A DNA stretch of 64,000 bases. It comes from a virus. Its lineage: Duplodnaviria; Caudoviricetes. The notes beneath the pieces are model-generated. The model made no database searches and had not been told where the DNA came from. It saw only the letters and a program-made list of their open reading frames with translations. Positions 7,401 through 39,549 of this stretch are shown here, piece by piece. Made by a program: the position numbers and the translations under genes. How positions within the stretch are numbered: position 1 is the stretch's first letter; each line of letters opens with the position of its first letter. Where the stretch lies: positions 54,426-118,425 of the IMG/VR virus record IMGVR_UViG_3300013121_000009; one strand, 5' to 3'.

Positions 7401-8321
7401 TCTAATTTGTGGAAATAATTTAGAAAATCTGTCAATAATTGGTTTTATTGCACTTGAGAAAAACTTTTCTGGAGATATTGACTTGTTAATATTTAAGAAA
7501 ATTTTTTCTTCAGATTTTTCATCAATTTTTACTTCATTCCATGTATTTCCGTATTCGTCAGTAATTAATGCTGGGTTATATCCTTGTTTTTTAAGAATGT
7601 TAGTTACAGTGTTCTCATAGAAATTATAAATAGGTTTTAAAGCACCAAATCCTTCTTTTTCAATTCTATCAAGTTCTTGTTTAAGTTGTTTTATTTCATT
7701 ATTAATATCTTCTACATTTTTTAAAGAATCTTTTAAAGAACTTGTAGGGGATGCAGAATAAAAGTTTTCTCTACCATTTATTCTTCTAAATTCATTAGCT
7801 TCTTCTTCAGTATTAAAATAATGTTTTTTATTACCAGTTACCTCACTAACCAACCAAGGTTTATTATTACTTGCAGTTTTCTTTTTTTCTTCAAGTTCTT
7901 TAATCCTATCTTCTTTCTGCTTTTTAAACTCTTCTAAAGTAGTGTGGCCTTCTACTTTACTTGCTGTATTACCACTAGGAAATAATACTTTCTCATATCC
8001 TTTCTTAGCACTATCTTGTATAATAGATTTAACAAAGAATGTAACCCAGTTGTTATCTTTGTTTAGAAGTTGAAGAAATTGGTTTTCTTTAGTTTTAGAA
8101 AGTTCGTCTGCCCATTGCATAGCTTCCTTACCAGTAATTGACCCTTCTTTTTCAGCAGCCTCTAAATCTTTAGTATTAGTTAATAATTGATTAGTTCTAC
8201 CTTTTTGAAATACATCAGATTGTACTTCTAGTATTCTACGAGTTTTAGGTTGTTGACTTTGTAACAACTTAATTAATTCTCCTTCTGTGTATTTTACACC
8301 TTTATATTCGTAACAAGCCAT
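1419..8321 (-). CDS. giant virion cargo/polyvalent protein (half of an ExQSD domain, zincin-like EExxH, PD-(D/E)XK nuclease, long helical C-terminus)
   Basis: 2300 aa; RILEVQSD; EEYLH (7230-7244); GTAVH..EVTL..AGTPDII..IHDFK..QLSAY (~6100-6730); last gene of the cargo cluster as in crAss-like phages. Confidence 0.8.
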   Translation of the reverse strand: MACYEYKGVKYTEGELIKLLQSQQPKTRRILEVQSDVFQKGRTNQLLTNTKDLEAAEKEGSITGKEAMQWADELSKTKENQFLQLLNKDNNWVTFFVKSIIQDSAKKGYEKVLFPSGNTASKVEGHTTLEEFKKQKEDRIKELEEKKKTASNNKPWLVSEVTGNKKHYFNTEEEANEFRRINGRENFYSASPTSSLKDSLKNVEDINNEIKQLKQELDRIEKEGFGALKPIYNFYENTVTNILKKQGYNPALITDEYGNTWNEVKIDEKSEEKIFLNINKSISPEKFFSSAIKPIIDRFSKLFPQIRTRVITEAQISTLPEEIQRQFRAIDKLNKKVISFYHNGNVYLIKERVTQDVAIEEYLHPFVNALEVENSSLYQSLLLEAKQLFPELKDSIFEEYKDVYDSILDLNREFLTQALSRMMSGAIDDEKAKSWWQKFKDWLLSLVERMIGSNPDIQSDIMDLPNMSAQELIKHLMQTGTTINLGDIPSATNFHLSEDQIKNLQDMPKTVSQEESLDSVIDNTNLFDFEAVGHTYSTLDDTGITVPYISVSQKIQVSKFSNIFLEFAEVGTAVHSLLNQLVNQGKPISKINLNEIAEKSDLNKFFGGNKEVSLAILDYIAKYVQALRDKGSIVLTEVTLGDRKAINQIEQNNRVAGTPDIIEILEDGTAIIHDFKNMLPMIADDADNISEKKMDEMYFGFDGQAASKIRQKYFEKQLSAYAKLLELTGIKVVDLQIVPIFIGREKGIQETEDSPISVEIASRNGKPVIQFPIQIDFNPFSNRHSFDKNQLQKYQVKYNKNFADKIIHTPVERPRVKTQLELEGETIENQLKNSENLSKGLEEIFEIIESTIKQYGNSEDEFKRHLFDKFQERSGDFSEDVIKLIRSNIIHIFKNKEKGIDVFRASVVQYLGFIQQISNSLENIRQNQLSLIGKEYEDDFDMLSEWGKLKLLAVSYRPILEEIKLNHLAEVEDSNLFKQMVGKGLDYIDQIERTYEDRTLPVLAKVLNAQFPQEYKDRVARELIDRKQKKQQLLDSLPADDNRRKKIQNDIEKYQEEIESLPSESVIREMIKGELGDSDWFYSNFMANMSNPDYIISASTNILKDSLMDLRFKSIENSERFGREFEKRIKVFGDIRDRIKKMNQDLIYVVSRIDTMTGLEHKQLHLISDIDEHVFYHLDKLTYELNKATKAKDEARKKSDVLAEAKAKIEIDKAKANIKAYKLLHFENKYKDEYYRVLKEIDKDFTDGKRTLNPKEMVDTIFDEIRTIKSGYSTTQYLQGDISQEHAERIIELWRQYSLLFSELHEDGSPKTGIDKEVQQLLLKRRENLKKFRTTKTNIFLWQRLKQNMINDFGEDSREFAEWNARNSRTVLKPEFYEHRDEIFNMIETIMKEYQVGSDNTQERIQAVWKSLFRITAPYKNEGEFTTQIIPEATLKEVKGKELEIDRLKNSIESLGMTDEDKQTLYTLFDALSDLQVRENTEQYYEDYNRELSKFCARKSAETGTTITPNQVNIDPALFNEFKSTPWYSNSHLTIQKNTYKNGNLQVDENMNPIKKDEEIPIYIYRRTVPLDSNYYEEVPSLAYTTSFVNDEWLNPNYKDEFGRPKLKKTSKYYKPSQLEGDDNAGKASYIQLERGTSEKDRVNFENIQFLMKEMQEIQKGLNTSNKLYYAIPSIEKSTWERITDEGVYNTIKGSMRNLYQNAQDYSDGLKDLGLKDRHVLANLSGEETKFIPVRYSQDIDMEDQSYDVFGSILKYQMSATKAKILEKKLAFFETLEGALSSHKVKKEGFVNVVKDKLNKSLNLGLNVSVNSTDSTRLNNIRDLINRIFYDEFKKDLVSVNNMFTFGKTLTDTKIADAINSFAGKNMMFLNIPNWIVNFFSGNLQMLIEATGNQEFNFKEDFKRAKLYLIRPETIRDIVTDAGKTHDKSLFGQMLDFFDPLQGEFENEFGEKEQWSTRRAGAKNLFFFGKNMGEWELQVSTFIAMMNAKKVFKVTNGKRVAISLMDAFEKGDKGLPKIKDGIEYEEGVPLTYEHLKDFTNKIHAINKALNGSYAKFDQSLVEKYSVARLMIFMKKFFIPLFVNRFGMKRFDLEMGTYREGHYKVFIMTFLRDLIMYRQNVIKKLGATLAAPFVKDSSLTEQYTDQQVAAIKKTMIELYMMAGFMMLLLALGYYDDDDDGDAAMFAQYILLRIGHELQTSAPPISLQETYSVLKTPYVAMGSVGNLYNLLTNIIVTPINAVGSTMGYDWFEEDLYYQKDTPLFNKGDSKVVAQFMRALGLKLNITHPKQLLKSYDYMVQIN

Positions 8322-8323
8322 AA

Positions 8324-8809
8324 TTAATTATTGTTTAATTTTTTAAGTTCCCAAGCTTTAATATTAGCTTGTCTACGTTTTTCAATAGTTTCTGGAGATT
8401 GTTTCCTACCTTTTAAAGTATTAGCAATCTTACTTTTAATCTCTTCAGAATGTCCAACTTCTCTATGAAACTTTTTTACAGAATCTGAAATTTTAGATTT
8501 AACTTCTTCTGTATGATTTAAACCCCATCTTCCTTCCACTTTTGAACAAATATTATAATTAGGTTTTAAAGTATCAATATAATATTGTTCTTTTATAGGT
8601 AATTCTTCTTTACTACATTCTTCTATTAAAAACATTGTAAAATTATCTTTATCATATTTATTATAAGAATTTTGAAGATGGGTATTTTTATGAATACCTA
8701 ATCTTAATCTTCTAAAATGGTCAGATTTTCTATTATAGAAATGTGTAGCACTTCCTATATAAAATTTACCATTTGCTTTATTTTCTATTTTATATATTCC
8801 TGTTTTCAT
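8324..8809 (-). CDS. free-standing GIY-YIG homing endonuclease with NUMOD3 repeats
   Basis: MKTGIYKIENKANGKFYIGSA; HTEEVKSKIS/HSEEIKSKIA/QSPETIEKR; start moved to ATG 8809 (TAATG overlap). Confidence 0.92.
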   Translation of the reverse strand: MKTGIYKIENKANGKFYIGSATHFYNRKSDHFRRLRLGIHKNTHLQNSYNKYDKDNFTMFLIEECSKEELPIKEQYYIDTLKPNYNICSKVEGRWGLNHTEEVKSKISDSVKKFHREVGHSEEIKSKIANTLKGRKQSPETIEKRRQANIKAWELKKLNNN

Positions 8810-10191
8810 TATCCGCAAGGTACTTTTTTTATTGTTCCTGAAGCAATTAAATCTTCTAAAAATCCTGTAAAAGGATATTTGTCATCTGAACGAAACCAAC
8901 CAATACCATTATCAGTACTAAACTGTGCATGACCTTTAATAGAAGGTGTAATACCTGGAGTACTTATTTCATTCTCAGTATAATTAGTGCCACCTGGAAC
9001 TGTTAGATTAGAATAATATTGAGTTGGTTGTCCTTTTTCTTGTGATATAATACCTCTATCTGTATAAAACTCACTTTCTTCTGGAGCTATTGATTTAGTT
9101 GCAATAGCAGTATTAATCTCAACAGTATGAGAATAGTTAGCTAAAAGGTTGGTCAATATCTCCTCTCTATTTCTTGTACCAAAAGAAAGGATTAAATCTT
9201 TCTGTTCTTTAGGTATTTGAAGTTCTGTTAGAATTTTATCAATAGACCAACCATTTTTATCTCCTTTTCTAAATGTTTCATCGGCCTCAGGGCTCGATAA
9301 TATTTTTACTGATTTTAATGAATAATCAACATTAAATTGAGTTTTATTTGAAGGATTAAATGATGTTCTATTTTTCCAAATCTTTGAACCATCTTCTGTT
9401 TGAGTATATTTTGGTCCGAGTTTTTCTTTATATTTCATAGAATTTACTACAGGTTTCCCTGTAATATTTGCTATTTTTTGAAGAATTTCTGAGGCTATAC
9501 CTATACCTCTAATTTCGATTGGAAGTTGTATAAAATTTACAACTATTTCAGAACCCATATCTCTTATTATAACTTGGGATTGACCTGTTTCGAAGTCTTC
9601 TGAATTTTCATCTACAATTTGCTCTTTGCCAAGAAAAACATTAACATTCTGATTATCACCAGAAGTTCTTCCTAATTTTACAGTAATATTACTTCTAACT
9701 TTTGGAGTAGGTTTACTAAGATGAAATTGAATTTCCTTAGAGTTTTCTTTCTCAAATCTCCTATTTGTTTCCTTAATAATATCATCAATCTTCTGAACTT
9801 GTTCAGAAATTTCATTCTGAGAACTAGTATCTGAATCACCTTCATCATTGATAAAGTTAACTTCCTTATTAACTGTATTATAAGTATCCTTATATTTTTG
9901 CCAGTAAGTTTCTACCAGAGAGTCAGATGGCTTAATATAGATGTACTGCCCACCAGGGATTTGTCCTCTGGAAGCAATAGCTTCTTTGAAATTTGTATTA
10001 AGTTTTAAAACCATAGACTTGGCATAACCCTGTGCTAAATCTTGCCTTCCTTGAAATTTATCTATAGAAATAAATAAATCATTTCCTAGAGCAATAGCTT
10101 TAGGTTTTCCATCTCTATGTGCATTTATTACTAAATTCTGGGCCTTTTTGATAATCCCTTTTTCTATATCTATTCTACATTTTAAGCTCAT
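8809..10191 (-). CDS. virion cargo protein with GNAT-like domain and N-half of ExQSD domain
   Basis: Likely start ATG 10191 (TAATG overlap, MSLKC); IRGIGIASEIL GNAT motif A; PGGTNYTE...GHAQF..IGWFRSDD near C-terminus. Confidence 0.7.
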   Translation of the reverse strand: MSLKCRIDIEKGIIKKAQNLVINAHRDGKPKAIALGNDLFISIDKFQGRQDLAQGYAKSMVLKLNTNFKEAIASRGQIPGGQYIYIKPSDSLVETYWQKYKDTYNTVNKEVNFINDEGDSDTSSQNEISEQVQKIDDIIKETNRRFEKENSKEIQFHLSKPTPKVRSNITVKLGRTSGDNQNVNVFLGKEQIVDENSEDFETGQSQVIIRDMGSEIVVNFIQLPIEIRGIGIASEILQKIANITGKPVVNSMKYKEKLGPKYTQTEDGSKIWKNRTSFNPSNKTQFNVDYSLKSVKILSSPEADETFRKGDKNGWSIDKILTELQIPKEQKDLILSFGTRNREEILTNLLANYSHTVEINTAIATKSIAPEESEFYTDRGIISQEKGQPTQYYSNLTVPGGTNYTENEISTPGITPSIKGHAQFSTDNGIGWFRSDDKYPFTGFLEDLIASGTIKKVPCG

Positions 10192-13100
10192 TAGCAATTG
10201 TTTTCTTCTGTTAAATCAATTTCAGGTAATCCTTCTGGAGCCGCTAATATACGACTATTTTCTTCATTTTTAGTTTTTAATGCATATAATAATGGAGCTT
10301 CATAATGGAAATCCTTTAAATTCATTAAATATCCTGGAGGGCTTCCAATAATACCTGGAACATTTGGAACAAATTCAAGTTTTACACCAGGTATTTGTGA
10401 CATCCAATTATAGATAGTTCCTGTTTCATAGAATGCTCCAAATTTTTGAAGTACAAAGTTATGGAAAGTTTGGTCTGAAGTACTATTCTTAAGTTCAGCC
10501 TTTACCATTTCTTTCATAGCTTGTAAGGATGGTTCTTGTGTTAACATTGTATGTATTAAACCTAGAGAACCTCTTCTTGTAAGATACTCCTTGAATAATT
10601 GTTTTAATTCTTCATCTGTTCTTGGAATAATTTCTTCTCTACCTGCATACAAAGCAGCGGTTCTTACATTTCCTTGTGTTAATTTAGTAATTTCTGCTCC
10701 AGAAAAATACATAGGTACATCTTTACCAAAAGCTTTAATATGCTCTTGAATAGCTCTTGTAGCCAATGGCATAAAATATTGCTTTTCAAGTTCAAGTCTT
10801 TTATGTTCTTCATAAAGAATACTATTAATATCTTCATTGGCATTCTTAAGATTTTCTTTACTCTGTTCAATTCTCTCATTAGCAACTTTCTCAAAGTATG
10901 CAATTCTAGACTCTATAGAGTTATATTTTTCTACACTTTTGTCATAAGTCTTCTTATCAACTTTATAGAATTCAGTCCGTCCATTTCCAGCATAATATAT
11001 TTCATCATCTTTTTCAAATGCAAATCCTGCTGTACCATCTAGATTTATTGACGAATACTTTTCTTCCAGTGATTTTCCAGATTCGTCTCTAGCTTTTTCA
11101 TAATCTTCTTTAGAAATTTCAGTTGCAACTTCTTTTATTGGGAACATAGGTTGAAGGGAATCTTCTTTTCTAACATATTCATCTAAAGCTTTTTGAGCTT
11201 GAACTGCAACTTGTTCTTTAAGATTAACTTCATTACTTTGGACTACTGCAACAAGTTTTTGAAAAGTTCTTAAATCAACATATTTTAAGAAGTTTTCTTT
11301 AGTCTGTAATAAAGATTGGATTTTATAGTTTCTAACTTGATCCATTTTGAGAGTTGTTAATCTCTTAGTTGGAGCAGCTTGCATTCTTTTTGCTAAAAGA
11401 ATTAACATATATTCTACGTTATCAGATAACATATCAGATAATTCTGTTCCTCCTCTTCTTCTAGGTCTTCTAATAGGTCTTAATGTTAATATTGTATTTT
11501 CATTTCTTTTTTCTGCAACTTCTCCATCCACCATAGTAAGAGTATTGTTTCTATAGAAGTATTCCAAACCTGCATAGTTTTTGTCTACAAAATATTGGAA
11601 CATCTTTTTCTCTATTTTAGCAACTACTGGACTTTGTTCATACATTCTTTTTCTCTGTTCATAAGTTAAATATGGATCATCTTCCCAATCTGAATCCCAG
11701 TTTCTAGAATAATTAATCTTTTGAATTTCTTTACGTAATTCATTCAAATCTTCTTTAGTAAGAATTCTTTTTAAACCACCAGCTTTGAAAAAGTTAAACA
11801 TATCATGTTTTACTTCATATGTCTCATCAATTAATTTAGCAGTTCTAGCAATAGCCATTTCTACTGATTCTCCATAACTTCTTGATAAATCAATTGACTC
11901 CTGAAAGGCAGCTCTTAGAGCTTCGTAAGCTTCTTCAGAACTTCTATATCCACCTAAAGGATGATTTAATTTTTCTTCAATCATTTGATATAAGAAAGAC
12001 TTACTTCTTGATGGTAAAGTTGCATTATAGATGTTAACTTTTGGGGCCTGCGGAGTTAAATTTCCTATATTTTCTTCCTTAATTCTTTCTATTTCTTCTA
12101 TTCTTCTATTTAAGTCAGCTTCAAGGTTAGGAATCTTTGCAGAATCCATTTTCTCTTTATTATCATTTTGTAACTCATGGAATAAAACAGCATCTTTAAC
12201 TTTCGAATCTTTTGAAGAATAAAAATAGGTTAAGTTTACCCAAGAGTTAGGTGCAAGATTAAAGTGACCTCCGCCTTTGAATACAGTATCATTGAATCTT
12301 AAACTTATTTTATTATGATAAATTTCTCTTTTTCCAGCTAATCCTAATTCTGCAATTAATTGGTCTCTTCTTTCAACTGTTATATTTCCAGCTTGTACCT
12401 CTGCTTCAATTTGAGCCATGTCGTAGTTCTTACTTGATACTCTATCTGGAACATTGATAAATGTTTGGTCAACTCTATAGCTTAGATACTTTTGCTCTTT
12501 GGCAAAACCTAATACATAGTTTAATTTTAAGAAATTATGAACTTCATTAACAAACTCTTCACCTGTTATACTTTTCAGAGAAGGATTTTCTTTTTTAATT
12601 AAGTCAATTATTGATTTGTATATATTAAGCTCTTCCTTTTTAACTCCATCTAATTTAAATTCTTGACTTAAAACTATAGGGTGTTTTCTAAATTTCTCTA
12701 AAATCTTAGGAAGACCTCTTAAAGCAGGTGATATCCCATTAATATATTCATTATTTCTTTTGAGGTCTTCTATTTCAGAAGGTGTAAGTTTTCTAGTAAT
12801 TCCTACTGAAGTTCCTTGTTTTACTGTCCATACTTCTGGATACCATTGTGCCCTGAAGTTTTTTGAATCTGCAATATCATAGAATCTTTTTATAGTTTTC
12901 TTTAAGAATTTAGTCTTAAGTTTAAATTGATTATTAAATAAACTATCTAAAAACTTCTTAGAGCTTTCTACTTCTATAACTTTTTTATTAGGATTTACTT
13001 CATCTTCATCTAATACTTCATCTGAGAAATAAACCTTTTTATTTAATTCTCTATATTCTTCTGGAGTCATTAAATCTGTCATATCTCCTGAGAGAATCTT

Positions 13101-16100
13101 CATCGCAGCTACTTCAAAAGGGTCATTTCTTAAAGCTTTGAATCTTGCCAGCAAGTTATTAATCCACTCTACGAATTTCTTTAAGAATGAATAGTCTGCT
13201 GGAGAACCGTGCTTTTCTTGAATTCTATGTATTGCTTCAGCTACAAGTTGTCCTATAGCTTCTTCTTTTAAAGTACTAAAATTATTGTAGTTAAATAACT
13301 CTCCATATTTAGTTTTGATTAATTCTTCAGCTTTTTTAGTAGAAGTTGCTGAATTCCATAATAATCTACTTAAAACTGAGTCTTTTCTTAATAGTCTATA
13401 CCAGAAGTGAGCAGCTTCTTCAGGAAGTTTATTCCAAGCTTCAGGTCTAGTTTCTAAGTTGTCTACAATATCTACTGTCATATCTATAAAGTTAGCAGCA
13501 GCTATAGCATCTCCTACTACAGTTCCATTTTGGTCTATAATATCAGGTACTAATCTTTCAGGGATTCCTAATTCTTGTAAGAAATTAGATACAGCATTCA
13601 GAGTATTAATATGAAACTCCATTTGCGTATCATCCTCAGTATCTAAACCAAAGAGTTGTTCTCTTGGAGTATTCATATCCATCTTGTAACCAGTCTTTAA
13701 GTCTACATTTTCTATATAGATTTCACCTGTTTCCTTACTTACTAAGTCGTAGTACCCATTGGCATTTCTAATCCAAGATGAATTGTGTGGTGCTTTTTTA
13801 TTCTTTCCGAATTCTTTAAGGAAAGATGCAGCAGTGAAGAATTCTCTTGGTTTATCAGGTAATCTATTAAATCTTTCAATATCTACGTCATCAATAATCT
13901 TTTCTCTTCTGAAACCTTTTTCTGGAGCTGTATCTAGAGAATAATCTTTATATCTCATAGATTCTACTCTTGTGAGATTTCCAGATACTTTTCTCTGACC
14001 TTTTCCTCTGAATTTATTATTGTTAGCATAGAATAACTCAGTAAATGAATTTAAAGCATTGGCTTTTTCATTAATTGATAGTTTTTCGTATTCGTTAACA
14101 GCATAGTCTAGTAATCTAGATATAACTTCTGGATTAATAACATCTGTAGAAGAAATAGGAGTTTTATTTAACCCTGACTGGAAGAATGATAAGAAAGCGA
14201 ATTTCTTCATAAATTCTTGAGTGTCAGGATTATTTTCCAATTCTTCAAATTGGTCTATATAGTCATTCTGTAACTGAATATCTTTATTAAAATAAATGAG
14301 GGCTATATTCTTAATCTTATCAGACATTTCTGAATTCTGATTAGATGTAGAAATAACTAGGTTATCAATAATAGAGTACATTTCCTTAAGTTTAGGGTAT
14401 TTACTTTTAAGTTCTCCTAATTCTAAATAAAGTTTAAATAGAAGTTCTTTACCAAAAGCTACTGGATCTGACTCAAATTTACTGAATGAACCAAACTGTG
14501 ACTCAAAGTATTTCATACCTTCATCAGAATTCTTAAGGAAGTTCTGGAAAATAAAATGAACGAAGTCATTCTTGAAAGTTCTTTCATAAGCTTCGTGAAG
14601 TCTTTTAGGTAAATCCGAACCTTTTCGATCTTCCATTTCTTTATAGATTCTATCATTTAGTTGTGGAGAGTTTAGGATTGGAAGGACTTTATTAGCTATT
14701 TCACTTGAGAAATCAGAAGTATCAAATATAGAAACTATTGAATGATTCTTAATCTTATCAAAGTTAATAAGCATACGTTTATCCTGAACAGCCTGGTAAT
14801 CTTTTTCTCTCCTGTAGGCATTAAATGAGCTTTTTGTCATAGCTGTATCAAAGTTTACAGAAGATTGAGCTTCTCTAAAGTCTGATGCTATTCCTTCCAT
14901 AGCTATAAACTGCCATAGATATAAAGCTTGAACTTGAGCTTCATTTTTATTTCCTATAAAGTATTGGTTAGATTTTCCTAAATATTTATTAAGAACTTCG
15001 GACTCTAAAAGTGCACCTGGATTGGTTCCTGCTCTATGTAAAGTTCCTTCCATAGAAATAAATGGAGAAGACTCATCTGTCGGAAGACCTACATATTTTA
15101 AAGCTTCATGAATTGGATTAAATCTTTTAGTAATAGATTTAGATTCTAGTTCTTGTTTAGCTATAACATATTTTTTAATAATTGGTTGATTTAATAAGAA
15201 TACTATATTCTTAATTGGTAAACCCATATGTAATCCCAGGAATAAAACTGGAGCTGTACTTGTTCCAATATTAACATAACCAGATTTTGGATTATTGGCT
15301 ATATCTACATAAAGGTTAATAAGCTGAGAGATAGCTGTAGCTTTTGAAACTCCATTTAATAATTTAGATTTAGCTAGAGAAATATTTCCTTCGCTATCTC
15401 TTAATCCATTAAATAGAATTAGGTTTTTTTCTAAATATTCAGCAGAAATTTTAACATTAGCTTCTGCAAGTAATTTAGTAAATGTATTAGCTTGAGCTGC
15501 TATACCTAGGGAGTCTTTTCCTTGATAAAGTGAGTCTGCTTTATCTTCATTAACAGTAGGAGAGAACATTTTAGTTAGCTTAACATCTGTGTTAACTTTT
15601 TCTGTTTGTTTATCAACAAGTTCTGGGTTATTAATTCTGATTAACCTATCTATTAATTCATCAAATAAATATGTAGAGTTTGGTGTAATTAAATTAAGAA
15701 GATTGTCAGGTCTTAGAATAACTTCTTCAGCTACTCTGATAATTTCATTCTCTAAAGAACCTTTGTAATTAAAGAAATCCCACTCAGCTTTTTGAGCTTT
15801 TTGTCTAAATTCATTTAATTCTTCTGATAAATCAAAAGAATAACCCCAGATTCTTTCATAAAGTTCTGATATTTCAGGGATTTCCTTAACTGCTTTAATT
15901 TTAGTTTTTCTTCCATCTACAGTAAATGTATTTGATACATATTTTTCAAGTTCTTCTTTCTCAAAGTTTTTAGCCTTAATAATTGATGATAAAGTAATTC
16001 TATCGTCAATAGCTTTAAGGATATCCAGCATAGTTATCACTCTATCATTATAGTCTTGTAATAACTTGTTCTTAATATCATAAAATGGAGTTTCTTCAGA

Positions 16101-19100
16101 TAAATCAGTGTACTCATCAAATATAGCTTTTAAGAATGAAGCATTATTCACCTTTAGGAAATTTCTAATTTCTTGAGATATTGTAAACTTCTGATTATCA
16201 GATTCTTTTCTGATAGTTTTCCATTCATCAAATAATTGCATCATCTCTGCATAAATCTTATTCTTTTCCTTGAAGAGTTCATTAAGTTCTATCTCATCAA
16301 TAAGATTTCTTTTTTCTCTTCTATGAACAGCCAAGTCATTTTTTAATTCAGAAATTCTATCAAATATCTTTTGTTTAATCTTAGCTCTTTCAGAGAAAGC
16401 GTAATTAGTAAGAACTCTTTTTTCTTCTTTGATGCGAGTTTTAGCTTTTTTAAGTTCATCCATAGCTTGAAGCATAGGAATTTCAGCTTCGTTCTTAGTT
16501 TGGAACTTCCTAGTAATGTAATTACCTTCATTGTCTATATTAGGCATGAATGTATTCAATTTGTCAATATCAAAGTCAGAACCAGATTTAGCTGTCATCT
16601 CTGTTGGTACTATAATAATGGAACCTGCTCTTTCTGGTAGGAATTCTTTAATTTCCATTACTTCCATAGAGTTATGTTCCTGAGTAGGAATACGATAACC
16701 AACTATAGTTAAAGATTGAGAATCAATTCTTCCTTGAGCTATCAGACTATTAAGTCTTTCCAGAGTACCAATTGGTTCTCCATCAATTTCGCGCTTTAGA
16801 AGTTTCTTGAACTCACCTGAAAGTGCTACTTTAATTTGAGATTTTCTGATAAGAGTATCTCCAGCTTTATAGTAATATGTTCTTAAATCGTTAGTACCAT
16901 TCTCCAGGGATGTAGATTGGGAAGAACCAAATTTCTCCCATCCAGTACTTGAAACCTGAATTTTCATTTCTCCCCTGGTTTTTTGACGTACTAGTCTTTT
17001 GTTTAATACAGCCTGAATAATAGAATCAATTACAGATCTTTGTAGAGAAACATCTAACCTATTTTTGAATTCTCCTGATGGGAGTAACTCAAAAGTTTTT
17101 AAGATATTCTTATTAATAACTTTCTTCTCGATTTCTTTCTTAATAAAGTCGATGAATTTAACTTTATCATGAATATTATAGTTTCCACCTGCATCTTTAG
17201 TAATAGATGCAACCTTAAAGATACTTTCTCTTTCTATATCTGTAAGTTCTTGAATAAGACTTTTATATTTAGTGAAGGCTTCTTTTAGTTCTGGAGTTGT
17301 TTCTCCTTCATCGAATGTATCAAAAAGTAGCTTTCTAAACTGAGTTCCGAATATAAGTCTAGTATCAATCTCTGGAGAGATTTTTACTTGTTCTTTAATA
17401 TTATCAAGAAAGCCTTCTCTAACAGAATAAGTTCCTTTATCCTGTGAATAAGTATCTAGAAGAGAATGAATAGTATGTGGAATTCTAGCTTCTAAATCAA
17501 TGTCATAGAATTGATCAGGTTTCTGAGTTTCAGCTTTATCTCCAGATTTAAATAGAGCATAATCAGCATCTTCTATCACCATTCTCTCCATATGTTTTTC
17601 CCAATTGGTACCAGCAACTGCTTGTGGTATAATTGGAAATACTGAGAACTTGTGAAAACCTATTTCCTGTATAACATCATTTTTAATATTACCAAAGTAC
17701 TGAAGTTTTTGAGGCTGAAAGTAAGATATCTCTTCTTCATTCAATTCGTTCTTAATCAATTGATCTCTTAGTTCCTGTGAAACAGTTTCATTTCTTTGTT
17801 CAAGATTATTAATTTTTCTATTTAGCATATCCCACTGAATAGCTTTCATATAGGCTTCCTGCATTCTATCATCCCATCTTCCTGATAGCATTTGCATTTT
17901 TCTAAAGAAATCTAAAGTAATAGCACCCTGTCCATCTGTTTCATTTACAGAACTATAAGCTTTTATAATAGTATCTCTTACAGCCATAAGCTGTGCTCTT
18001 CTTGAGTCTGAGAGATTTTCTTTTCTTAATTGTACATCCACTAATTCTACGTAGTGTTCTAAATATGCAGATTTTGGCTTAATATCATCAAATACTATAA
18101 ATCGAGTAATTCTTGAAGAAGCTTCTCTTTGAGAAATTTTAGGGAATTCCGCTCCTGTAATCTCCTTAAAGGAAGCTTTCATCAAACCTCTTTGAGTTAC
18201 TTGAGATAAATCTTCAAAATCTTTTAATAGTTGTTCATCTGTAGTTGGAATAGTTCCTGTAGCAGATCCTCCAGCTACACGCTTATGAGGGTCATTATAG
18301 AAGAATGTATTTCCAAATATAAGCTTGGAAGATTCTATATTAAAAGCTATTTGATTAGTAATATATTTTCTTATAAAGTTGTCTTTTTGATTTTCTGTCC
18401 CAGTAACATGTTTCCAGACTCCTTTATCTTTCATATATTTGATATGTTTAGCTACTTCTTTATTTAAGAAGATATTAATGCTAGTATCAATGTCAGCTTG
18501 ATTTTTAGCTATAACTCTATCAATATCATCAATATTCTTAGCTTCTAGAAGAGCTTCTCTTAGTCCTGGAACTTCAGATACTATGTCACGGAAGATACCA
18601 AATTGGTACCCTTCTTCATTTTTAATATTTCCTGAAAGTTTTACAAGTTTAGTTAATTCTGGATTACCATCCCTGTGAGAAACCATAATAGCTAATTCAT
18701 CTCTCAGATATCCTTCCATAGCAAGTTTGAACTCCTGAGAGTTTCTTACTAAAGGGCCTTTAAGACCAAAAGCATAGAACATAGATTTATCACCTAATTG
18801 AATTGTAGGATAAATATTATGATTTACCAGATAATGTGCATCCATAAGAACCTTATCTCCAATATAAAGAGATTTAGTTTTATCACCTTCTGTCTCAGAA
18901 CCTGGATTTCTTTCTGATGCCATACCATTATAGTTATGTATAGCAATAGGTTCAACATCTTTTCTAGAACCATCTCTATTGAAATAGTAAGAAAGAAGTT
19001 GAGAGTTTCTCATATCTAAGAAACCTTTATTATTTAAGAATCCTTTATAGTGTTCAAATCCAGGGATTTGTATAATAGATTGAAGAGAAGGATAGTTTTT

Positions 19101-22100
19101 AGTATCATTTAGAATACCCATAACTGTGTGAATTCTATTCCACATAGTTTGTTCATATTCTGTTTTACCATCAGCATTTCTCACTGAATTAGAAATGTAA
19201 GAATCTTCATATTTATCATATGCTGTAAGTAATCTTGTCACAAATGATTTTACACTTGATGTTCGATCCCATTTTTTCTGGGTATCCCAATTGAAAGTAA
19301 GAGCGTCATCATATCCTATATCTGTTCCTAGAACTTGGTAAATATCCTTAATAGGATTACCACTCTTTCTGGAAGCTTCTCTTTTTAACCATAGAACTAT
19401 GTGTTCTTTTACATATCCCATTTGAGATGCTAGTCCTGACTTATTTAATAATTCAAGAGTAATAGGAATTCCTAGATTTCTATAGAATTCTAGTGCACTA
19501 CCTTTGAAGTTTTCTATCTCATTTATAGTTTTTTCATCATAATTAATTACAGTTTCTCCATCAGCATTATTTGAGATAAATTTAGTAGGTTTAGTAAGTA
19601 AGAATTGAGATCTTAAATTAGCATGGATTTTTTCTTTATTAAGATTAGTAATTGGAGAGTCTTTAAACTCAAGTTCTCCAGCCATTCCATCTTCATCCCA
19701 GTTCTTATCAATAAACATTATTTTAAGAGGTGTTGAAGGTCTTGAAAATGTAGCTAAGAATCTAGCTTTCATATTAAAAGCAGAACTAGAACTACCTGCT
19801 AAAAGTCTATCCATTATTATTTTAATCTCAGGGTATTTTTTAGACAATGCTTCCATAATAGCTAATTGTCCATTAGATCCATATAAATTTTTTACTCCTG
19901 AAAGATTTCTAGTAAGAATACCTATAATCTTTCTAGCATCTATTAATCTTGGAAGACCAAATTCTGGGTCTAAATATCCAGGAATTGATATAGATTCTAT
20001 CATTCTTACAATATTTGGATCTGTATAATCATAAAATGATTGTTCAGAAGCTACGTTATCATTGTAAGAGTCTCTTCCTTTATTTTCAAATTGATTACTT
20101 TCTGGATCTTTATATACAAAAGTTCCATCTTCTTCAATATCAAAATCTTTCGAAATATTCGAAATGGTTTTTGACTGTGCTAGATGTGCATCTTTAACGC
20201 CTTTATTATTATTGTCTCCCCAATTGTCAAGAATTCTTTGTTGATTAGCAATAATAGGGTCTGTTTTAGCTGCTTCTTCACCAATAGCTTCTATTCTTTC
20301 TAGTTTTAAATATTCGATATAGTCTTTTACTAGCCCGTAGAGTGAGTCTAGTTTTTTAATTTTCTTGATATCAAGAGTTGTGTATCCTTTAGAATATAAA
20401 ACTTCAGTTACTATTGCTTCTACTCCATTAATAATTTTAGTATAATCTCGGCTAGAAAAAGCTGGAGATATATCTGAATTTAAATTAGAAAAGTAGATAT
20501 TATCTGTTGAAGGGACTCTTCCTTGAAAATCTCCTTTCTTAAGTGTTTTATATAATGTGTCTAAAGAAACATCCTTAGAGCCAAACAAGCTCTTTAAGAA
20601 AGCCCATATCTTCTCAAATATAGACTTTCTCACTGGATAATCTCCTAGAATTTTGCCTGTTTGGTCGAATTTTGAGAAATCCCTGGCAATGAATTCTTCC
20701 ACTTCAAGATCTGAAGCATTCTTAAGCTTTGATACTTTTTCTCTAGTTTCGTCATAAAGTTTCTTTTTCTCGTCTTTTGTTAAGTAAAGCTGTGAGAAAT
20801 GGTGCCAAGCTTCATGGAATAAGTCAGCTCTAGTAGCACCTTTATATAAGGTAATGGCTGATGCTGACCAAGTTGCCCATGCACTTGAGTTAACTATTTC
20901 TGCTAAATTTTGTACGTTTACATCTCCAAAGATACGTTTAACTTCTTCAATATCTGTATTTGTTACCTTTAAGGAAGGTACTGGAACTTGCTTTTTGCTA
21001 GATTCTAGCTTAGTTCCTTTGATTTTATCCTGGAGAGCTTTTTTTCTTTTTGATACTTCTGATTTATCTGGAATAATGTTTTCTTTCTCTGTAAGAGTAG
21101 AATTATCTGTAGAAATAACTAGAGACTCTGAAGTAGGTTCTTGAATTTCCTCTTGTTTTATAATAGATTTATTAGATATTTTAGGTTCTAATAATTGTAA
21201 TTCTTTTTCTAATTCATTGAGTCTATTTTTTAACTCCAGAATATCTTCTTCAGTAATTTCTTCACCTTTTTCTTTCTTAGTTCTAATTCTAGCTACAAGT
21301 AAATATAATCCTGCTAGTGCTTGTGAACTACTTCCTAAAATATTACTCAACGCTTTTTTAAGACTTGCAATTCTATCATCCAAAGTCTTAATAACTATTT
21401 CTGGAGATTTATTATTTAACCAATCAGCATAGGTTTTTACATTTTCAGCAGAAAAATAATTTCTTAAATATTCTGAATAACTTTCAATTGAGCCTACTTC
21501 TGGTAAAATATAGAAAGATACATCATCTGTTAACTGATTTTCAATTGAAGAAAATATTTCTTTATTAATTCCCATACATCCCATTGAAGCAGCATTATTA
21601 GTAGGATCTGAATCTCTTAATAATTGTTCTCTTACTTTTAAATTAGCATGAAATCCTATATATGAAGTCTCTCCTGTATTTTCTCTATAAACCCCCGTTC
21701 CTTGTAATACCCATTTATACTTAGCTCCATAATCTTTATCTTCAGCTTTTTTGGCTTGATATACTCCTGCTGGAGTAATTTTTAACTTAGCTATTTCATA
21801 TTCTTCTTGAGAATATCCTATTTTAGCTAATTCATCTGATTTTCTAATATCTCCTTTATTTTTTCCTATAACGATATCTCCAGAATAAACTATTCTTCCA
21901 TCAGCTTTAAATATAGTTACATTTCTTTGTTTTTTATTTACTACTACATAATCTCTGTCTCCATATTTTTGTTTATGGAGTTTATTAAGATTATCAAAAT
22001 TTAAAGTCTCATTAGTTATTATTTCTATAGTTTGAGCATTGTTGAAATTTGCTGTTTGTATAGAAACAGCACTTACACTTGAAAAAGATATAGCTCCTAT

Positions 22101-22619
22101 AATAGCAACCTTGATTACTCTATTATATAATTTCTTTAAAATTTCTAGAATTTTATCAGAAAAACCTTTAAATCCAGCCTGAAGTTTTGACAAAGATGAT
22201 GCAACATACTCTTCTTTAGTTTGCCCTTCTTTATCAGCTTCTTCTTGAAGAATTTTTATTTCTTCATCTGATAACTCTTCATTGATTGCATCAGAAATTG
22301 TTTCATTTATTTTTTCTTCATTAGCCTTTTCTTCATCCTTTGGGGGATTAATTTCGTTAAAAAGTTGTTTAATTTCATTAATCTCAGCTTTAATTTCAGC
22401 TACTCTAATATCTATTTGTTCCTGAGAAAGCTCATCAGATATTGCTGGTATTTTCAAACTTTCTTTCAAAGAATTTAATTTATCTTCCAACTTTGAATGG
22501 TTTTCTTGTATAAGTGAGCTAGCAAGAACTTTTTGTTCTTGTTCACTCATTCCATCTTTGTAAAGTTTTTCAAACTCTTTCTCTAGGCTTGTACCTTTAA
22601 AACAACTTCTTACTGACAT
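10191..22619 (-). CDS. crAss-like virion RNA polymerase polyprotein with YkuD-like and zincin domains
   Basis: YRIPTQ...SGSDFDIDKL (DFDID 16563-16577) and TDGQG, as in phi14:2 gp66-type single-chain RNAPs; HEAWH 20802-20816; FH..SMGC YkuD-like ~21498-21953; EEAAH 13407-13421. Confidence 0.92.
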   Translation of the reverse strand: MSVRSCFKGTSLEKEFEKLYKDGMSEQEQKVLASSLIQENHSKLEDKLNSLKESLKIPAISDELSQEQIDIRVAEIKAEINEIKQLFNEINPPKDEEKANEEKINETISDAINEELSDEEIKILQEEADKEGQTKEEYVASSLSKLQAGFKGFSDKILEILKKLYNRVIKVAIIGAISFSSVSAVSIQTANFNNAQTIEIITNETLNFDNLNKLHKQKYGDRDYVVVNKKQRNVTIFKADGRIVYSGDIVIGKNKGDIRKSDELAKIGYSQEEYEIAKLKITPAGVYQAKKAEDKDYGAKYKWVLQGTGVYRENTGETSYIGFHANLKVREQLLRDSDPTNNAASMGCMGINKEIFSSIENQLTDDVSFYILPEVGSIESYSEYLRNYFSAENVKTYADWLNNKSPEIVIKTLDDRIASLKKALSNILGSSSQALAGLYLLVARIRTKKEKGEEITEEDILELKNRLNELEKELQLLEPKISNKSIIKQEEIQEPTSESLVISTDNSTLTEKENIIPDKSEVSKRKKALQDKIKGTKLESSKKQVPVPSLKVTNTDIEEVKRIFGDVNVQNLAEIVNSSAWATWSASAITLYKGATRADLFHEAWHHFSQLYLTKDEKKKLYDETREKVSKLKNASDLEVEEFIARDFSKFDQTGKILGDYPVRKSIFEKIWAFLKSLFGSKDVSLDTLYKTLKKGDFQGRVPSTDNIYFSNLNSDISPAFSSRDYTKIINGVEAIVTEVLYSKGYTTLDIKKIKKLDSLYGLVKDYIEYLKLERIEAIGEEAAKTDPIIANQQRILDNWGDNNNKGVKDAHLAQSKTISNISKDFDIEEDGTFVYKDPESNQFENKGRDSYNDNVASEQSFYDYTDPNIVRMIESISIPGYLDPEFGLPRLIDARKIIGILTRNLSGVKNLYGSNGQLAIMEALSKKYPEIKIIMDRLLAGSSSSAFNMKARFLATFSRPSTPLKIMFIDKNWDEDGMAGELEFKDSPITNLNKEKIHANLRSQFLLTKPTKFISNNADGETVINYDEKTINEIENFKGSALEFYRNLGIPITLELLNKSGLASQMGYVKEHIVLWLKREASRKSGNPIKDIYQVLGTDIGYDDALTFNWDTQKKWDRTSSVKSFVTRLLTAYDKYEDSYISNSVRNADGKTEYEQTMWNRIHTVMGILNDTKNYPSLQSIIQIPGFEHYKGFLNNKGFLDMRNSQLLSYYFNRDGSRKDVEPIAIHNYNGMASERNPGSETEGDKTKSLYIGDKVLMDAHYLVNHNIYPTIQLGDKSMFYAFGLKGPLVRNSQEFKLAMEGYLRDELAIMVSHRDGNPELTKLVKLSGNIKNEEGYQFGIFRDIVSEVPGLREALLEAKNIDDIDRVIAKNQADIDTSINIFLNKEVAKHIKYMKDKGVWKHVTGTENQKDNFIRKYITNQIAFNIESSKLIFGNTFFYNDPHKRVAGGSATGTIPTTDEQLLKDFEDLSQVTQRGLMKASFKEITGAEFPKISQREASSRITRFIVFDDIKPKSAYLEHYVELVDVQLRKENLSDSRRAQLMAVRDTIIKAYSSVNETDGQGAITLDFFRKMQMLSGRWDDRMQEAYMKAIQWDMLNRKINNLEQRNETVSQELRDQLIKNELNEEEISYFQPQKLQYFGNIKNDVIQEIGFHKFSVFPIIPQAVAGTNWEKHMERMVIEDADYALFKSGDKAETQKPDQFYDIDLEARIPHTIHSLLDTYSQDKGTYSVREGFLDNIKEQVKISPEIDTRLIFGTQFRKLLFDTFDEGETTPELKEAFTKYKSLIQELTDIERESIFKVASITKDAGGNYNIHDKVKFIDFIKKEIEKKVINKNILKTFELLPSGEFKNRLDVSLQRSVIDSIIQAVLNKRLVRQKTRGEMKIQVSSTGWEKFGSSQSTSLENGTNDLRTYYYKAGDTLIRKSQIKVALSGEFKKLLKREIDGEPIGTLERLNSLIAQGRIDSQSLTIVGYRIPTQEHNSMEVMEIKEFLPERAGSIIIVPTEMTAKSGSDFDIDKLNTFMPNIDNEGNYITRKFQTKNEAEIPMLQAMDELKKAKTRIKEEKRVLTNYAFSERAKIKQKIFDRISELKNDLAVHRREKRNLIDEIELNELFKEKNKIYAEMMQLFDEWKTIRKESDNQKFTISQEIRNFLKVNNASFLKAIFDEYTDLSEETPFYDIKNKLLQDYNDRVITMLDILKAIDDRITLSSIIKAKNFEKEELEKYVSNTFTVDGRKTKIKAVKEIPEISELYERIWGYSFDLSEELNEFRQKAQKAEWDFFNYKGSLENEIIRVAEEVILRPDNLLNLITPNSTYLFDELIDRLIRINNPELVDKQTEKVNTDVKLTKMFSPTVNEDKADSLYQGKDSLGIAAQANTFTKLLAEANVKISAEYLEKNLILFNGLRDSEGNISLAKSKLLNGVSKATAISQLINLYVDIANNPKSGYVNIGTSTAPVLFLGLHMGLPIKNIVFLLNQPIIKKYVIAKQELESKSITKRFNPIHEALKYVGLPTDESSPFISMEGTLHRAGTNPGALLESEVLNKYLGKSNQYFIGNKNEAQVQALYLWQFIAMEGIASDFREAQSSVNFDTAMTKSSFNAYRREKDYQAVQDKRMLINFDKIKNHSIVSIFDTSDFSSEIANKVLPILNSPQLNDRIYKEMEDRKGSDLPKRLHEAYERTFKNDFVHFIFQNFLKNSDEGMKYFESQFGSFSKFESDPVAFGKELLFKLYLELGELKSKYPKLKEMYSIIDNLVISTSNQNSEMSDKIKNIALIYFNKDIQLQNDYIDQFEELENNPDTQEFMKKFAFLSFFQSGLNKTPISSTDVINPEVISRLLDYAVNEYEKLSINEKANALNSFTELFYANNNKFRGKGQRKVSGNLTRVESMRYKDYSLDTAPEKGFRREKIIDDVDIERFNRLPDKPREFFTAASFLKEFGKNKKAPHNSSWIRNANGYYDLVSKETGEIYIENVDLKTGYKMDMNTPREQLFGLDTEDDTQMEFHINTLNAVSNFLQELGIPERLVPDIIDQNGTVVGDAIAAANFIDMTVDIVDNLETRPEAWNKLPEEAAHFWYRLLRKDSVLSRLLWNSATSTKKAEELIKTKYGELFNYNNFSTLKEEAIGQLVAEAIHRIQEKHGSPADYSFLKKFVEWINNLLARFKALRNDPFEVAAMKILSGDMTDLMTPEEYRELNKKVYFSDEVLDEDEVNPNKKVIEVESSKKFLDSLFNNQFKLKTKFLKKTIKRFYDIADSKNFRAQWYPEVWTVKQGTSVGITRKLTPSEIEDLKRNNEYINGISPALRGLPKILEKFRKHPIVLSQEFKLDGVKKEELNIYKSIIDLIKKENPSLKSITGEEFVNEVHNFLKLNYVLGFAKEQKYLSYRVDQTFINVPDRVSSKNYDMAQIEAEVQAGNITVERRDQLIAELGLAGKREIYHNKISLRFNDTVFKGGGHFNLAPNSWVNLTYFYSSKDSKVKDAVLFHELQNDNKEKMDSAKIPNLEADLNRRIEEIERIKEENIGNLTPQAPKVNIYNATLPSRSKSFLYQMIEEKLNHPLGGYRSSEEAYEALRAAFQESIDLSRSYGESVEMAIARTAKLIDETYEVKHDMFNFFKAGGLKRILTKEDLNELRKEIQKINYSRNWDSDWEDDPYLTYEQRKRMYEQSPVVAKIEKKMFQYFVDKNYAGLEYFYRNNTLTMVDGEVAEKRNENTILTLRPIRRPRRRGGTELSDMLSDNVEYMLILLAKRMQAAPTKRLTTLKMDQVRNYKIQSLLQTKENFLKYVDLRTFQKLVAVVQSNEVNLKEQVAVQAQKALDEYVRKEDSLQPMFPIKEVATEISKEDYEKARDESGKSLEEKYSSINLDGTAGFAFEKDDEIYYAGNGRTEFYKVDKKTYDKSVEKYNSIESRIAYFEKVANERIEQSKENLKNANEDINSILYEEHKRLELEKQYFMPLATRAIQEHIKAFGKDVPMYFSGAEITKLTQGNVRTAALYAGREEIIPRTDEELKQLFKEYLTRRGSLGLIHTMLTQEPSLQAMKEMVKAELKNSTSDQTFHNFVLQKFGAFYETGTIYNWMSQIPGVKLEFVPNVPGIIGSPPGYLMNLKDFHYEAPLLYALKTKNEENSRILAAPEGLPEIDLTEENNC

Positions 22620-38166: not shown

Positions 38167-39549
38167 TTATTTTTTATTGTAGTTTTCAAAATCTTGATAT
38201 ATAGAATCAATTATTCCCTGATATTTTGGATTAAATTCCTGAACTCTTTTTCCAAACTCAGCTAATTCATTTCCATAATTATTTTGAGAAGACACTCCTT
38301 TATTTCTTTCATTAAAATCTGCGTAATCCATAGCCTTCTTTTTTTCTACAGTAGCAATATGTTCTCCCCAAGCAGTAAAAGGAGCAGCAAAAATACTAGT
38401 TAAAGCCCCTAAAGCCTTACCTGCTCCAGGGATAGGAACTACATTTCCTATAGATTCTCCTATTTTACCAATTTGCCCTGCTTTTTGTAAAGCTCTGGCA
38501 GCAGATTCATCTCCCGCTAAAGAAGCAATTGCTCCTCCACCTTGAATAACTGCATCTCCAGCAGAACCTATTATATCTAATGGATTAACTTTTAGTTTCT
38601 TTGATGGATTTCCTTCATCTCCTATCCCAGTTCCTTTTATACCTACTTCTTGCTCTGGATTTCCATTTTCTAAGTTAACATTTGTAATACCTATTCCACC
38701 TTGTTTTCCATTTTTAATATTATTAAAGTCAATACCTATTCCACCTGGTCCTTGTCCATATTGAGTAGTTTTATTTAAATCTATCCCAGTATATCCAGAT
38801 AATTGACCAAATTTGAAGTTTTCAACTCTATTCCCTGGATTAAACGTGTCGAATCCATTATAAGCTTTAATAAACCCTCCCATTTTCATAGGTTCTCCTT
38901 TGAGTAAGGTTTTTCCATCAAGAGAATAACCAACTGATTTATTATCCTTATCGTAGACATTAAAATAGCCTTTAGGTGTTTTATTTAAAAAGTAATCCTT
39001 ACTAAGCATTTCTGTTTGTAATAATTTTTCCTTAATTAAATCTGGATTAATTAGATTTCCATTTACATTATCCCAATTAAATGTACTTTTTACATCTTGA
39101 TTATATGAAGTAAGAGAATCTCTTTCTCTAGAATTTTCAATTGAACTATAAGGATTAACATTTATTCCATCTTGAGCCATTTGTTCTCCCTGAAGCTCTT
39201 GAGCCATTTGTTGAATAGCTTGTTGTTGATTCTTGGGATTCATAGCTTGAAGTTGTTTCATAATTTCTTGAGGGTCAACTTTTGCTTTTTGAGCATATGC
39301 TTGAATTATCTGAGTTACTTGATCTTGAACCTGAGTACCATCTTCAGCATGATGCCATTTAGCAGCATTCTGGGCAAAGATTGCCCTCTTCCTAGTTAAA
39401 GGATTTTTGGAATGCGTTAATTCTTCAGTGGATTTTCCAGTTCTTTTCTTTAAAGCATTGAACTTACCTTTATTTTCAGGTTTTATATGAATAGTTCCAC
39501 CATTTTTCATTTGAAGAAATTCTTCTTCCGTAACCCATCTTTTTGCCAT
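38167..39549 (-). CDS. virion cargo protein
   Basis: 460 aa; GGTIHIKPENKGKF...RKRAIFAQNAAKW motif familiar from crAss-like cargo genes; Q-rich segment; Gly/Ala-rich C-terminal helices. Confidence 0.65.
   Translation of the reverse strand: MAKRWVTEEEFLQMKNGGTIHIKPENKGKFNALKKRTGKSTEELTHSKNPLTRKRAIFAQNAAKWHHAEDGTQVQDQVTQIIQAYAQKAKVDPQEIMKQLQAMNPKNQQQAIQQMAQELQGEQMAQDGINVNPYSSIENSRERDSLTSYNQDVKSTFNWDNVNGNLINPDLIKEKLLQTEMLSKDYFLNKTPKGYFNVYDKDNKSVGYSLDGKTLLKGEPMKMGGFIKAYNGFDTFNPGNRVENFKFGQLSGYTGIDLNKTTQYGQGPGGIGIDFNNIKNGKQGGIGITNVNLENGNPEQEVGIKGTGIGDEGNPSKKLKVNPLDIIGSAGDAVIQGGGAIASLAGDESAARALQKAGQIGKIGESIGNVVPIPGAGKALGALTSIFAAPFTAWGEHIATVEKKKAMDYADFNERNKGVSSQNNYGNELAEFGKRVQEFNPKYQGIIDSIYQDFENYNKK

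Follow-up and report, generated by a model that had tools for sequence, protein, structure and literature searches.

A giant phage protein gene split by a free-standing GIY-YIG endonuclease gene between recurrent cysteine-bearing terminal peptides

INTRODUCTION

How can an endonuclease gene be carried in the middle of a coding sequence when neither an intron nor an intein surrounds it? This question is raised by a locus in a stretch of 64,000 nucleotides (nt), referred to below as the window, which covers positions 54,426 to 118,425 of the IMG/VR virus record IMGVR_UViG_3300013121_000009 (Caudoviricetes; genome of 118,425 bp with a GC content of 30.9 %). In this locus, the genes of which all lie on the minus strand, the gene of a giant protein is interrupted by the gene of a GIY-YIG endonuclease of 161 amino acids (aa). 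The upstream half ends with a short cysteine-bearing tail and the downstream half begins with a short cysteine-bearing leader, and these two peptides are together called tags. To our knowledge, selfish endonuclease genes are thought to survive in coding sequence only inside introns or inteins. The single case of phage Aeh1 represents a third way, with tails unique to it, whereas in the loci described here one conserved tag family is reused. An earlier note, made from the letters of this stretch, had read the arrangement as one domain split by a tag-endonuclease-tag cassette with new end-tags and without an intron.

THE SPLIT MODULE AND ITS UNINTERRUPTED RELATIVES

The layout that the earlier note had described proved accurate to the base, and the split of a giant phage protein gene by a free-standing GIY-YIG endonuclease gene is confirmed (Table 1). 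The upstream gene occupies an open frame of 462 codons (8809-10197), within which the ATG at 10191 is the likely start of a 460-aa protein. The C-terminal part of this protein carries, in order, PGGTNYTE, GHAQF and IGWFRSDDK, followed by the 22-aa tail ending in VPCG (C-terminal peptide ..IASGTIKKVPCG) and by a stop codon (8811-8809) that has one A in common with the ATG of the endonuclease gene (8809-8807, TAATG). The endonuclease gene has its own start (8809) and stop (8326-8324) and is read in a frame that differs from those of both neighbours. Two nucleotides past its stop (TAA-tt-ATG), at 8321, begins the gene of the 2300-aa downstream protein, the N-terminus of which reads MACYEYKG (MACYEYKGVKYTEGELIKLLQSQQP) and reaches the motif KTRRILEVQSD at residue 26.

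When uninterrupted homologues were sought, the two halves indeed proved to be consecutive parts of one module. More than 717 relatives of 1.3-4 thousand aa (kaa) were retrieved by a word-indexed search with residues 1-300 of the 2300-aa protein, and the best 120 were compared by local BLAST. In 102 of these 120 the upstream part of the module (A, residues ~290-440) and its downstream part (B, residues 26-276) lie in one polypeptide, with A just upstream of B, and 66 of 80 loci in viral contigs that encode the A part are unsplit at the window's site. The A+B unit is found from about position 40 to about position 2600 in otherwise different proteins, and therefore moves as one module. The description as one domain is founded on co-occurrence and not on structure, because no fold match was obtained and the A motifs were not folded by AlphaFold; the split module gave no match in Pfam, in PHROGs, in a PDB sequence search, in Foldseek against PDB or in the ESM Atlas, and the window's own 2300-aa protein gave none in Pfam. 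In the homologues of 1.3-4 kaa, the domains adjoining the module are Zeta_toxin, ART-PolyVal (PF18760), LysM, helicase and PD-(D/E)XK. Polyvalent proteins of phages, as reportedly described by Iyer and co-workers in 2017, are giant proteins that string variable effector domains, and the protein split here is probably of this kind, a virion protein that is internal or ejected.

The linker between GIGWFRSDD and KTRRILEVQSD is hypervariable in the homologues, with a length of 3-202 aa and a median of 38, and the loop that bears the window's cassette is, among relatives, a hot spot for insertions in general. In several unsplit relatives (L045, L062, L063, L074, L078 and L004; labels of this form denote the viral loci or contigs compared) the linker after GWFRSDD holds whole inserted domains, which are either a P-loop domain of ~180 aa with the motif GHPTIGKS or a Zeta-toxin-like domain with the motif GTSGSGKST.

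THE ENDONUCLEASE GENE

The 161-aa product matches the Pfam families GIY-YIG (PF01541; 2.4e-10) and NUMOD3 (7e-5, above the curated cut-off), as well as the PHROG annotated 'homing endonuclease' (2e-31). In an alignment of five cassette endonucleases the residues of the catalytic domain G4-I5-Y6, Y17-I18-G19, R27, E74 and N98, the last three being the catalytic Arg, Glu and Asn, are invariant. The cassette endonucleases checked against Pfam consist of GIY-YIG plus NUMOD3, and the relatives in L054 and L062 carry NUMOD3 plus a helix-turn-helix domain. Judged by these matches, the gene is a free-standing GIY-YIG homing endonuclease gene, and site-specific cleavage is predicted for its product. 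At the window's site the gene shows a presence/absence polymorphism, being missing from 66 of the 80 loci. Across the cassettes at least seven GIY-YIG lineages are represented, with less than 45 % identity between lineages, and homologous tags stand on either side of all of them. Outside the window, in the early/replication half of the same genome, there is another GIY-YIG-like gene, unrelated to this one (276 aa; G000:C1:26919-27749).

TAIL AND LEADER AS CONSERVED PEPTIDE FAMILIES

A HMMER scan with the 460-aa protein retrieved many short proteins in which the chain closes 26-40 aa past GWFR with this tail or a variant of it, such as ...SGILQKNCS, ...SGQLEINCK or ...GKLKIDCN, and 53 distinct tails were present in the fetched proteins. 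Many relatives likewise have this leader, or one of its variants (MACKYTYKGTTYNSKEEF, MSCIYKYKGKDYTKDEF), at the N-terminus. The tail and leader that the earlier note had called new end-tags are both present as described; they are not new to this locus, being members of conserved families. The tail of ~20-27 aa is built from an amphipathic helix, an SG pair, a short strand and a Cys that is followed by 0-1 residue and the stop, and the leader of ~25-33 aa from Met-Ala-Cys, a beta-hairpin (Y-x-Y-K-G-x-x-Y) and a helix.

Searches were made with hidden Markov models (HMMs) of tail and leader. The tail HMM gave 74 terminal matches and only 8 internal ones, all of a single tail-plus-extension form, and no internal match in unsplit proteins. 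An endonuclease follows each of the 11 distinct canonical tails of the loci. Of the 12 canonical leaders, nine stand after an endonuclease, two after another inserted open reading frame (ORF) of 666-783 aa, and one at a native boundary. The tags vary in the manner of coding sequence, differences in the tail at codon positions 1/2/3 amounting to 0.44/0.21/0.54, and 64 of 175 identical residues across the cassette tags use different codons; the start ATG-GCT-TGT is conserved at the same place in every cassette. Portability of the tags, constraint on them as coding sequence and tight linkage to the endonuclease are all apparent in these comparisons. The idea that the variable linkers of unsplit proteins are scars, that is, former tags that became fused, was dropped because the tail HMM revealed no internal copies and pairwise scores to the linkers were weak.

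In L166 and L171 (contigs of 154-166 kilobases) a canonical leader beginning MACKYIYKG directly follows ...LEEYCE-TAATG, with no endonuclease. The surrounding frames are full of in-frame TAG and TAA stops, the abundance of which suggests stop-codon reassignment in these phages.

RECURRENT CASSETTES AND A RECENTLY TRANSFERRED TRACT

Thirteen further cassettes with the order tail-Cys-stop, GIY-YIG gene and Met-Ala-Cys leader were found in fetched DNA, at no fewer than four break points. Those of L025, L029, L030, L164 and L170 occupy the window's site (site 1), those of L005, L041, L050, L062, L063 and L078 a position about 12 aa after QSDxFQKGR (site 2), that of L054 the invariant run SIIQDSAKKG|YEKVLFPSG (site 3), and that of L031 one further site. 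At site 3 a tail of 27 aa and a leader of 33 aa interrupt a run that contains no linker in unsplit proteins, and the tags are therefore insert-borne there. Exact-pattern scans for the tail DNA matched only three viral contigs and one metagenome contig, all with an endonuclease. The earlier note had regarded a widespread occurrence of the same split and tags without an endonuclease as an argument against a mobile cassette; inside the module no such split was found among the 80 viral loci, and all 14 splits, that of the window included, carry an endonuclease.

The window and L025 share a tract of ~620 nt, from -120 to +500 relative to the tail stop, with 90-100 % nucleotide identity. It takes in the tail, all of the endonuclease gene and the first part of the leader; identity falls to ~80 % over the codons of the conserved motifs and to ~40 % further out, and the two endonucleases are 92-93 % identical. 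The tail of the window has 93-97 % nucleotide identity to those of L025, L029 and L030, of which L030 carries an endonuclease of a different lineage, the switch occurring after the first 27 nt of the ORF. On sequence grounds, this pattern of identity is what break-induced gene conversion between phages that had diverged should leave, together with a later shuffling of cassettes, and homing may have been the route of transfer. Of the cassette that the earlier note had proposed, mobility is supported by recurrence at different break points and by the ~620-nt island, and the proof that the tags travel with the insert comes from L054 and not from the window.

A bigger insert occurs at the third break point in L062:7683-10644, L078:7896-10917, L009:835-4297 and L164:9429-11706. 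Its tail (..LEKEGLLEIDC) runs on in frame for ~65 aa (KGKLKAEKGL...GLVIPKN) and is followed by an ORF of 577-783 aa that starts MYKNINVEAEHNELILEN and has no Pfam match, and then by a leader, M(S/AN)CIYKYKGKDYTKDEF. In L164 an additional GIY-YIG gene follows.

Table 1. Features at the split locus (positions in the window)
Feature	Positions	Strand	Details
Upstream half-gene, 460 aa	8809..10191	-	likely ATG at 10191; MSLKC start; Cys only at residues 5 and 459
Conserved A part of the split module	8878..9330	-	residues ~290-440 of the 462-codon frame; motifs PGGTNYTE, KGHAQF, GIGWFRSDD
C-terminal tail tag, 22 aa, ...FTGFLEDLIASGTIKKVPCG	8812..8877	-	member of the conserved helix-SG-strand-Cys tail family
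Predicted free-standing GIY-YIG + NUMOD3 homing endonuclease gene, 161 aa	8324..8809	-	ATG overlaps upstream stop (TAATG)
N-terminal leader tag, 25 aa, MACYEYKGVKYTEGEL...	8247..8321	-	family M-A/S-C-x-Y-x-Y-K/N-G-x-x-Y-T/S-x-x-E-L/F
Conserved B part of the split module	7452..8246	-	residues 26 to ~290 of the 2300-aa protein; motifs KTRRILEVQSDxFQKGR, NNWVTFFVKSIIQDSAKKGYEKVLFPSG
Downstream half-gene, 2300 aa	1419..8321	-	Cys only at residues 3 and 1496
Endonuclease-free Cys/Cys gene junction, TGC-TAATG	10189..10196	-	4142-aa protein ends ...EENNC; next starts MSLKC
Gene of the 4142-aa protein	10191..22619	-	stop overlaps the ATG of the 460-aa gene
YkuD L,D-transpeptidase domain	21498..21953	-	residues 223-353 of the 4142-aa protein

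CYSTEINES AT THE ENDS OF THE GIANT PROTEINS

Cysteine makes up 0.09 % of the residues in this protein family, 231 of the 265 fetched proteins start with M-x(0-4)-C, and 94 end with C-x(0-2). In the giant proteins of the window Cys is mostly terminal, and the proteins of 1815, 460 (38167-39549), 924 and 939 aa contain none. The 4142-aa protein has three, at residue 6 (N-terminus MSVRSC), at the YkuD site and as the last residue, so that the 4142-aa and 2300-aa proteins have one internal Cys each. A boundary of the form ...C(x0-3)stop / M(x0-4)C without an endonuclease, between the upstream giant protein and the one considered here, is present in about 45 loci; terminal Cys residues are general at the gene boundaries of this family, with or without an endonuclease. 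These native boundaries have only the cysteines in common with the cassette tags, and not the tail sequence. The spacing from Cys to chain end varies, which favours a role at the protein level. Giant proteins that are almost free of Cys nevertheless begin and end with one, a rule that makes a covalently linked chain of ejected proteins a directly testable idea. For disulfides in virions there is a precedent in a crassvirus, in which they join subunits and the cargo is extruded partly unfolded (PMC10172136).

At the junction of the 4142-aa and 460-aa genes the stop and start codons overlap as they do at the endonuclease junction, but no endonuclease is present. Among the giant minus-strand genes (1419-45007), that of a 1574-aa protein encodes a Cys near the C-terminus (...NCIWQK).

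PROPOSED MECHANISM AND ALTERNATIVE EXPLANATIONS

It is considered likely that a mobile cassette, consisting of the tail, the GIY-YIG/NUMOD3 endonuclease gene and the leader, was copied into the gene of this giant, almost Cys-free phage protein, the halves of which would be rejoined by the tags. The cassette would have landed in the variable loop between GIGWFRSDD and KTRRILEVQSD of one conserved module, likely through repair of an endonuclease-induced break during co-infection, with crossovers in the DNA of the conserved motifs. The three genes would be translated separately, with stop/start coupling through TAATG and the 2-nt spacer, and neither RNA nor protein splicing would be involved. The halves would then probably be brought together by the tail and the leader pairing as one small alpha/beta unit, in which the strand of the tail and the hairpin of the leader form a dock, and a disulfide formed in the virion between the two terminal Cys residues, which have no others near them, could lock the pair; the halves may thereby retain their function. 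In this the tag pair would imitate the boundaries native to consecutive giant proteins, at which one chain ends and the next begins with Cys. The further suggestion that tail and leader form a self-contained, transferable dock-and-lock module, a mini-domain with a disulfide staple borrowed from the way in which the phage would string its giant ejected proteins head to tail, is tentative and rather doubtful.

Several observations weigh against the cassette reading. The native linker at the window's site has a range of lengths that covers tail plus leader, and since it is hypervariable the window alone cannot show the tags to be foreign. At site 1 three unrelated endonuclease lineages stand behind a nearly identical tail, and a few junctions that lack an endonuclease (L029, L166) likewise have canonical leaders. 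In other phages, about 60 genes more distantly related to that of the endonuclease lie in ordinary intergenic settings without Cys tags; the idea that the tags are companions of this endonuclease family in general was rejected on that account, and the tags therefore belong to this host-protein family. An AlphaFold model of the unsplit relative L011, made with a 44-sequence alignment, reached a predicted local distance difference test (pLDDT) score of 65, with the conserved A motifs below 50, and a model of a natural 222-aa piece with canonical leader and tail (P0200) reached 72, with only two helices confident. The cytoplasm, moreover, is reducing, and a disulfide between the tags could therefore form only after release or inside the virion.

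Free-standing endonucleases home between genes in T4, and the main rival of the cassette reading supposes a comparable course, in which the endonuclease came after the split and its tags, Cys/Cys boundaries are native, and GIY-YIG genes invade pre-existing tagged junctions by homing into their conserved DNA. This rival is kept alive by the single tail that the three lineages at site 1 have in common and by the recombination within the first 27 nt of the ORF, and it also fits the endonuclease-free Cys/Cys boundary of about 45 loci, the 4142/460 junction of the window (TGC-TAATG) and a canonical leader present in L029 and in L166 with no endonuclease before it. What weakens this rival is that 14 of 14 splits carry an endonuclease and that no endonuclease-free split inside the module was found among the 80 viral loci; it also accords poorly with the endonuclease that follows every canonical tail (11 of 11), with native boundaries that match the tags in their cysteines only, and with L054, in which tags inside an invariant motif came from elsewhere together with an endonuclease. 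Taken together, an origin of the split before the endonuclease appears improbable. Far less probable is that the split destroyed the module and that the halves are tolerated relics, the tags being neutral read-through into cassette DNA: AlphaFold does not fold the most conserved part of the module and no function is assigned to it, but neither half has lost any of the invariant motifs, either in the window or in the 13 other split lineages, which have diverged by 40-60 %, the tags are conserved as peptides across lineages, and the frames remain open for 460 and 2300 codons.

Two further explanations, both of them very improbable, would restore a single protein. A group I or group II intron, or ribosomal bypass between the Cys codons, would remove the interruption, and the two Cys codons are indeed placed on either side of the gap like a matched take-off and landing pair; in T4 gene 60 a bypass element is coupled with mobA (10.1101/2022.08.31.505936). 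The earlier note had seen no room for an intron, and this holds, only 141 nt (66 + 75) lying outside the endonuclease ORF; an Rfam cmscan over the locus at E<=10 returned only noise and no intron RNA. A hop of 495 nt would be unprecedented, and the coding pattern of tag variation with its many synonymous changes, the ATG-GCT-TGT start at the same place in all cassettes and the varying distance from Cys to chain end also speak against these routes. The tags might instead be halves of a very small split intein or of another self-ligating element that joins the proteins covalently, as the order of half plus tag, free-standing endonuclease, and tag plus half is that of fractured genes (PMC2677866) and a Cys stands at both junctions. 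Tail and leader together comprise 47-60 aa, far below a HINT fold, no Pfam intein or Hint match was obtained, intein motifs and a terminal His-Asn are missing, and intein chemistry would call for the Cys at the opposite end of each tag.

RELATION TO KNOWN SYSTEMS

The nrdA gene of Aeh1 was reportedly presented by Friedrich and co-workers in 2007 as 'genes in pieces'. As in the present locus, a free-standing homing endonuclease splits a normally single gene without an intron or an intein, and the halves carry C-terminal and N-terminal tails absent from unsplit relatives. The precedent named in the earlier note, mobE splitting nrdA, holds: in Aeh1 nrdA-a/mobE/nrdA-b the tails, which 'likely originated from foreign DNA' in the mobE insertion, are essential and rescue the split NrdA, and a general way to neutralise fragmentation was proposed from this (Crona et al., NAR 2011, PMC3045599). 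The same authors noted tail-like extensions on T4 gp39 and gp60, and expected that each case would have tails of its own, not recognisable by similarity (PMC3045599). In Aeh1 the endonuclease is of the HNH type, a single site is involved, and the tails are unique, lack a database match and bear opposite charges, whereas here one homologous tag family occurs at four or more sites with at least seven GIY-YIG lineages, and the tags have a terminal Cys each, show no charge complementarity and mirror native Cys/Cys boundaries. The concept of a split gene with tails has its published precedent in Aeh1; the reusable Cys-bearing tag pair is new.

Short C- and N-terminal peptides, the docking domains of polyketide synthases and non-ribosomal peptide synthetases, order and join consecutive giant polypeptides, and in engineered dock-and-lock tags the pair is locked by cysteines. 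The likeness of the present tags to these would be a functional analogy without homology, binding being putative here. In fractured genes, split intein halves flank a free-standing endonuclease (Dassa et al. 2009, PMC2677866). Those genes resemble the present locus in gene order, in their mainly phage occurrence and in having a portable tag pair in different host genes; their tags are intein halves of more than 100 aa combined and the protein is spliced, whereas the shorter tags described here contain no intein motifs and would permit at most docking or a disulfide. The T4 gene 39/mobA/gene 60 cassette, which Bonocora and co-workers are said to have described in 2011, is comparable in that an endonuclease and an accessory sequence move together as a cassette, there splitting a topoisomerase gene. 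The accessory element in T4 is an RNA bypass signal (10.1101/2022.08.31.505936), unlike the present case, in which none is evident.

If the proposed mechanism is correct, what was a curiosity would become a general, evolvable strategy for endonucleases inside coding sequence, and nature would provide, in the tags, two peptides of roughly 25 aa with which split proteins could be rejoined. Should the dock-and-lock suggestion also be true, an endonuclease could insert anywhere in coding sequence harmlessly, as a third strategy besides introns and inteins.

NEIGHBOURING FEATURES

The window holds virion-structural and tail-fibre genes. An identity of the 4142-aa protein as a virion RNA polymerase was not confirmed by PHROGs or Pfam. 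Its YkuD L,D-transpeptidase domain is supported by a Pfam match of 1.1e-5, above the cut-off.

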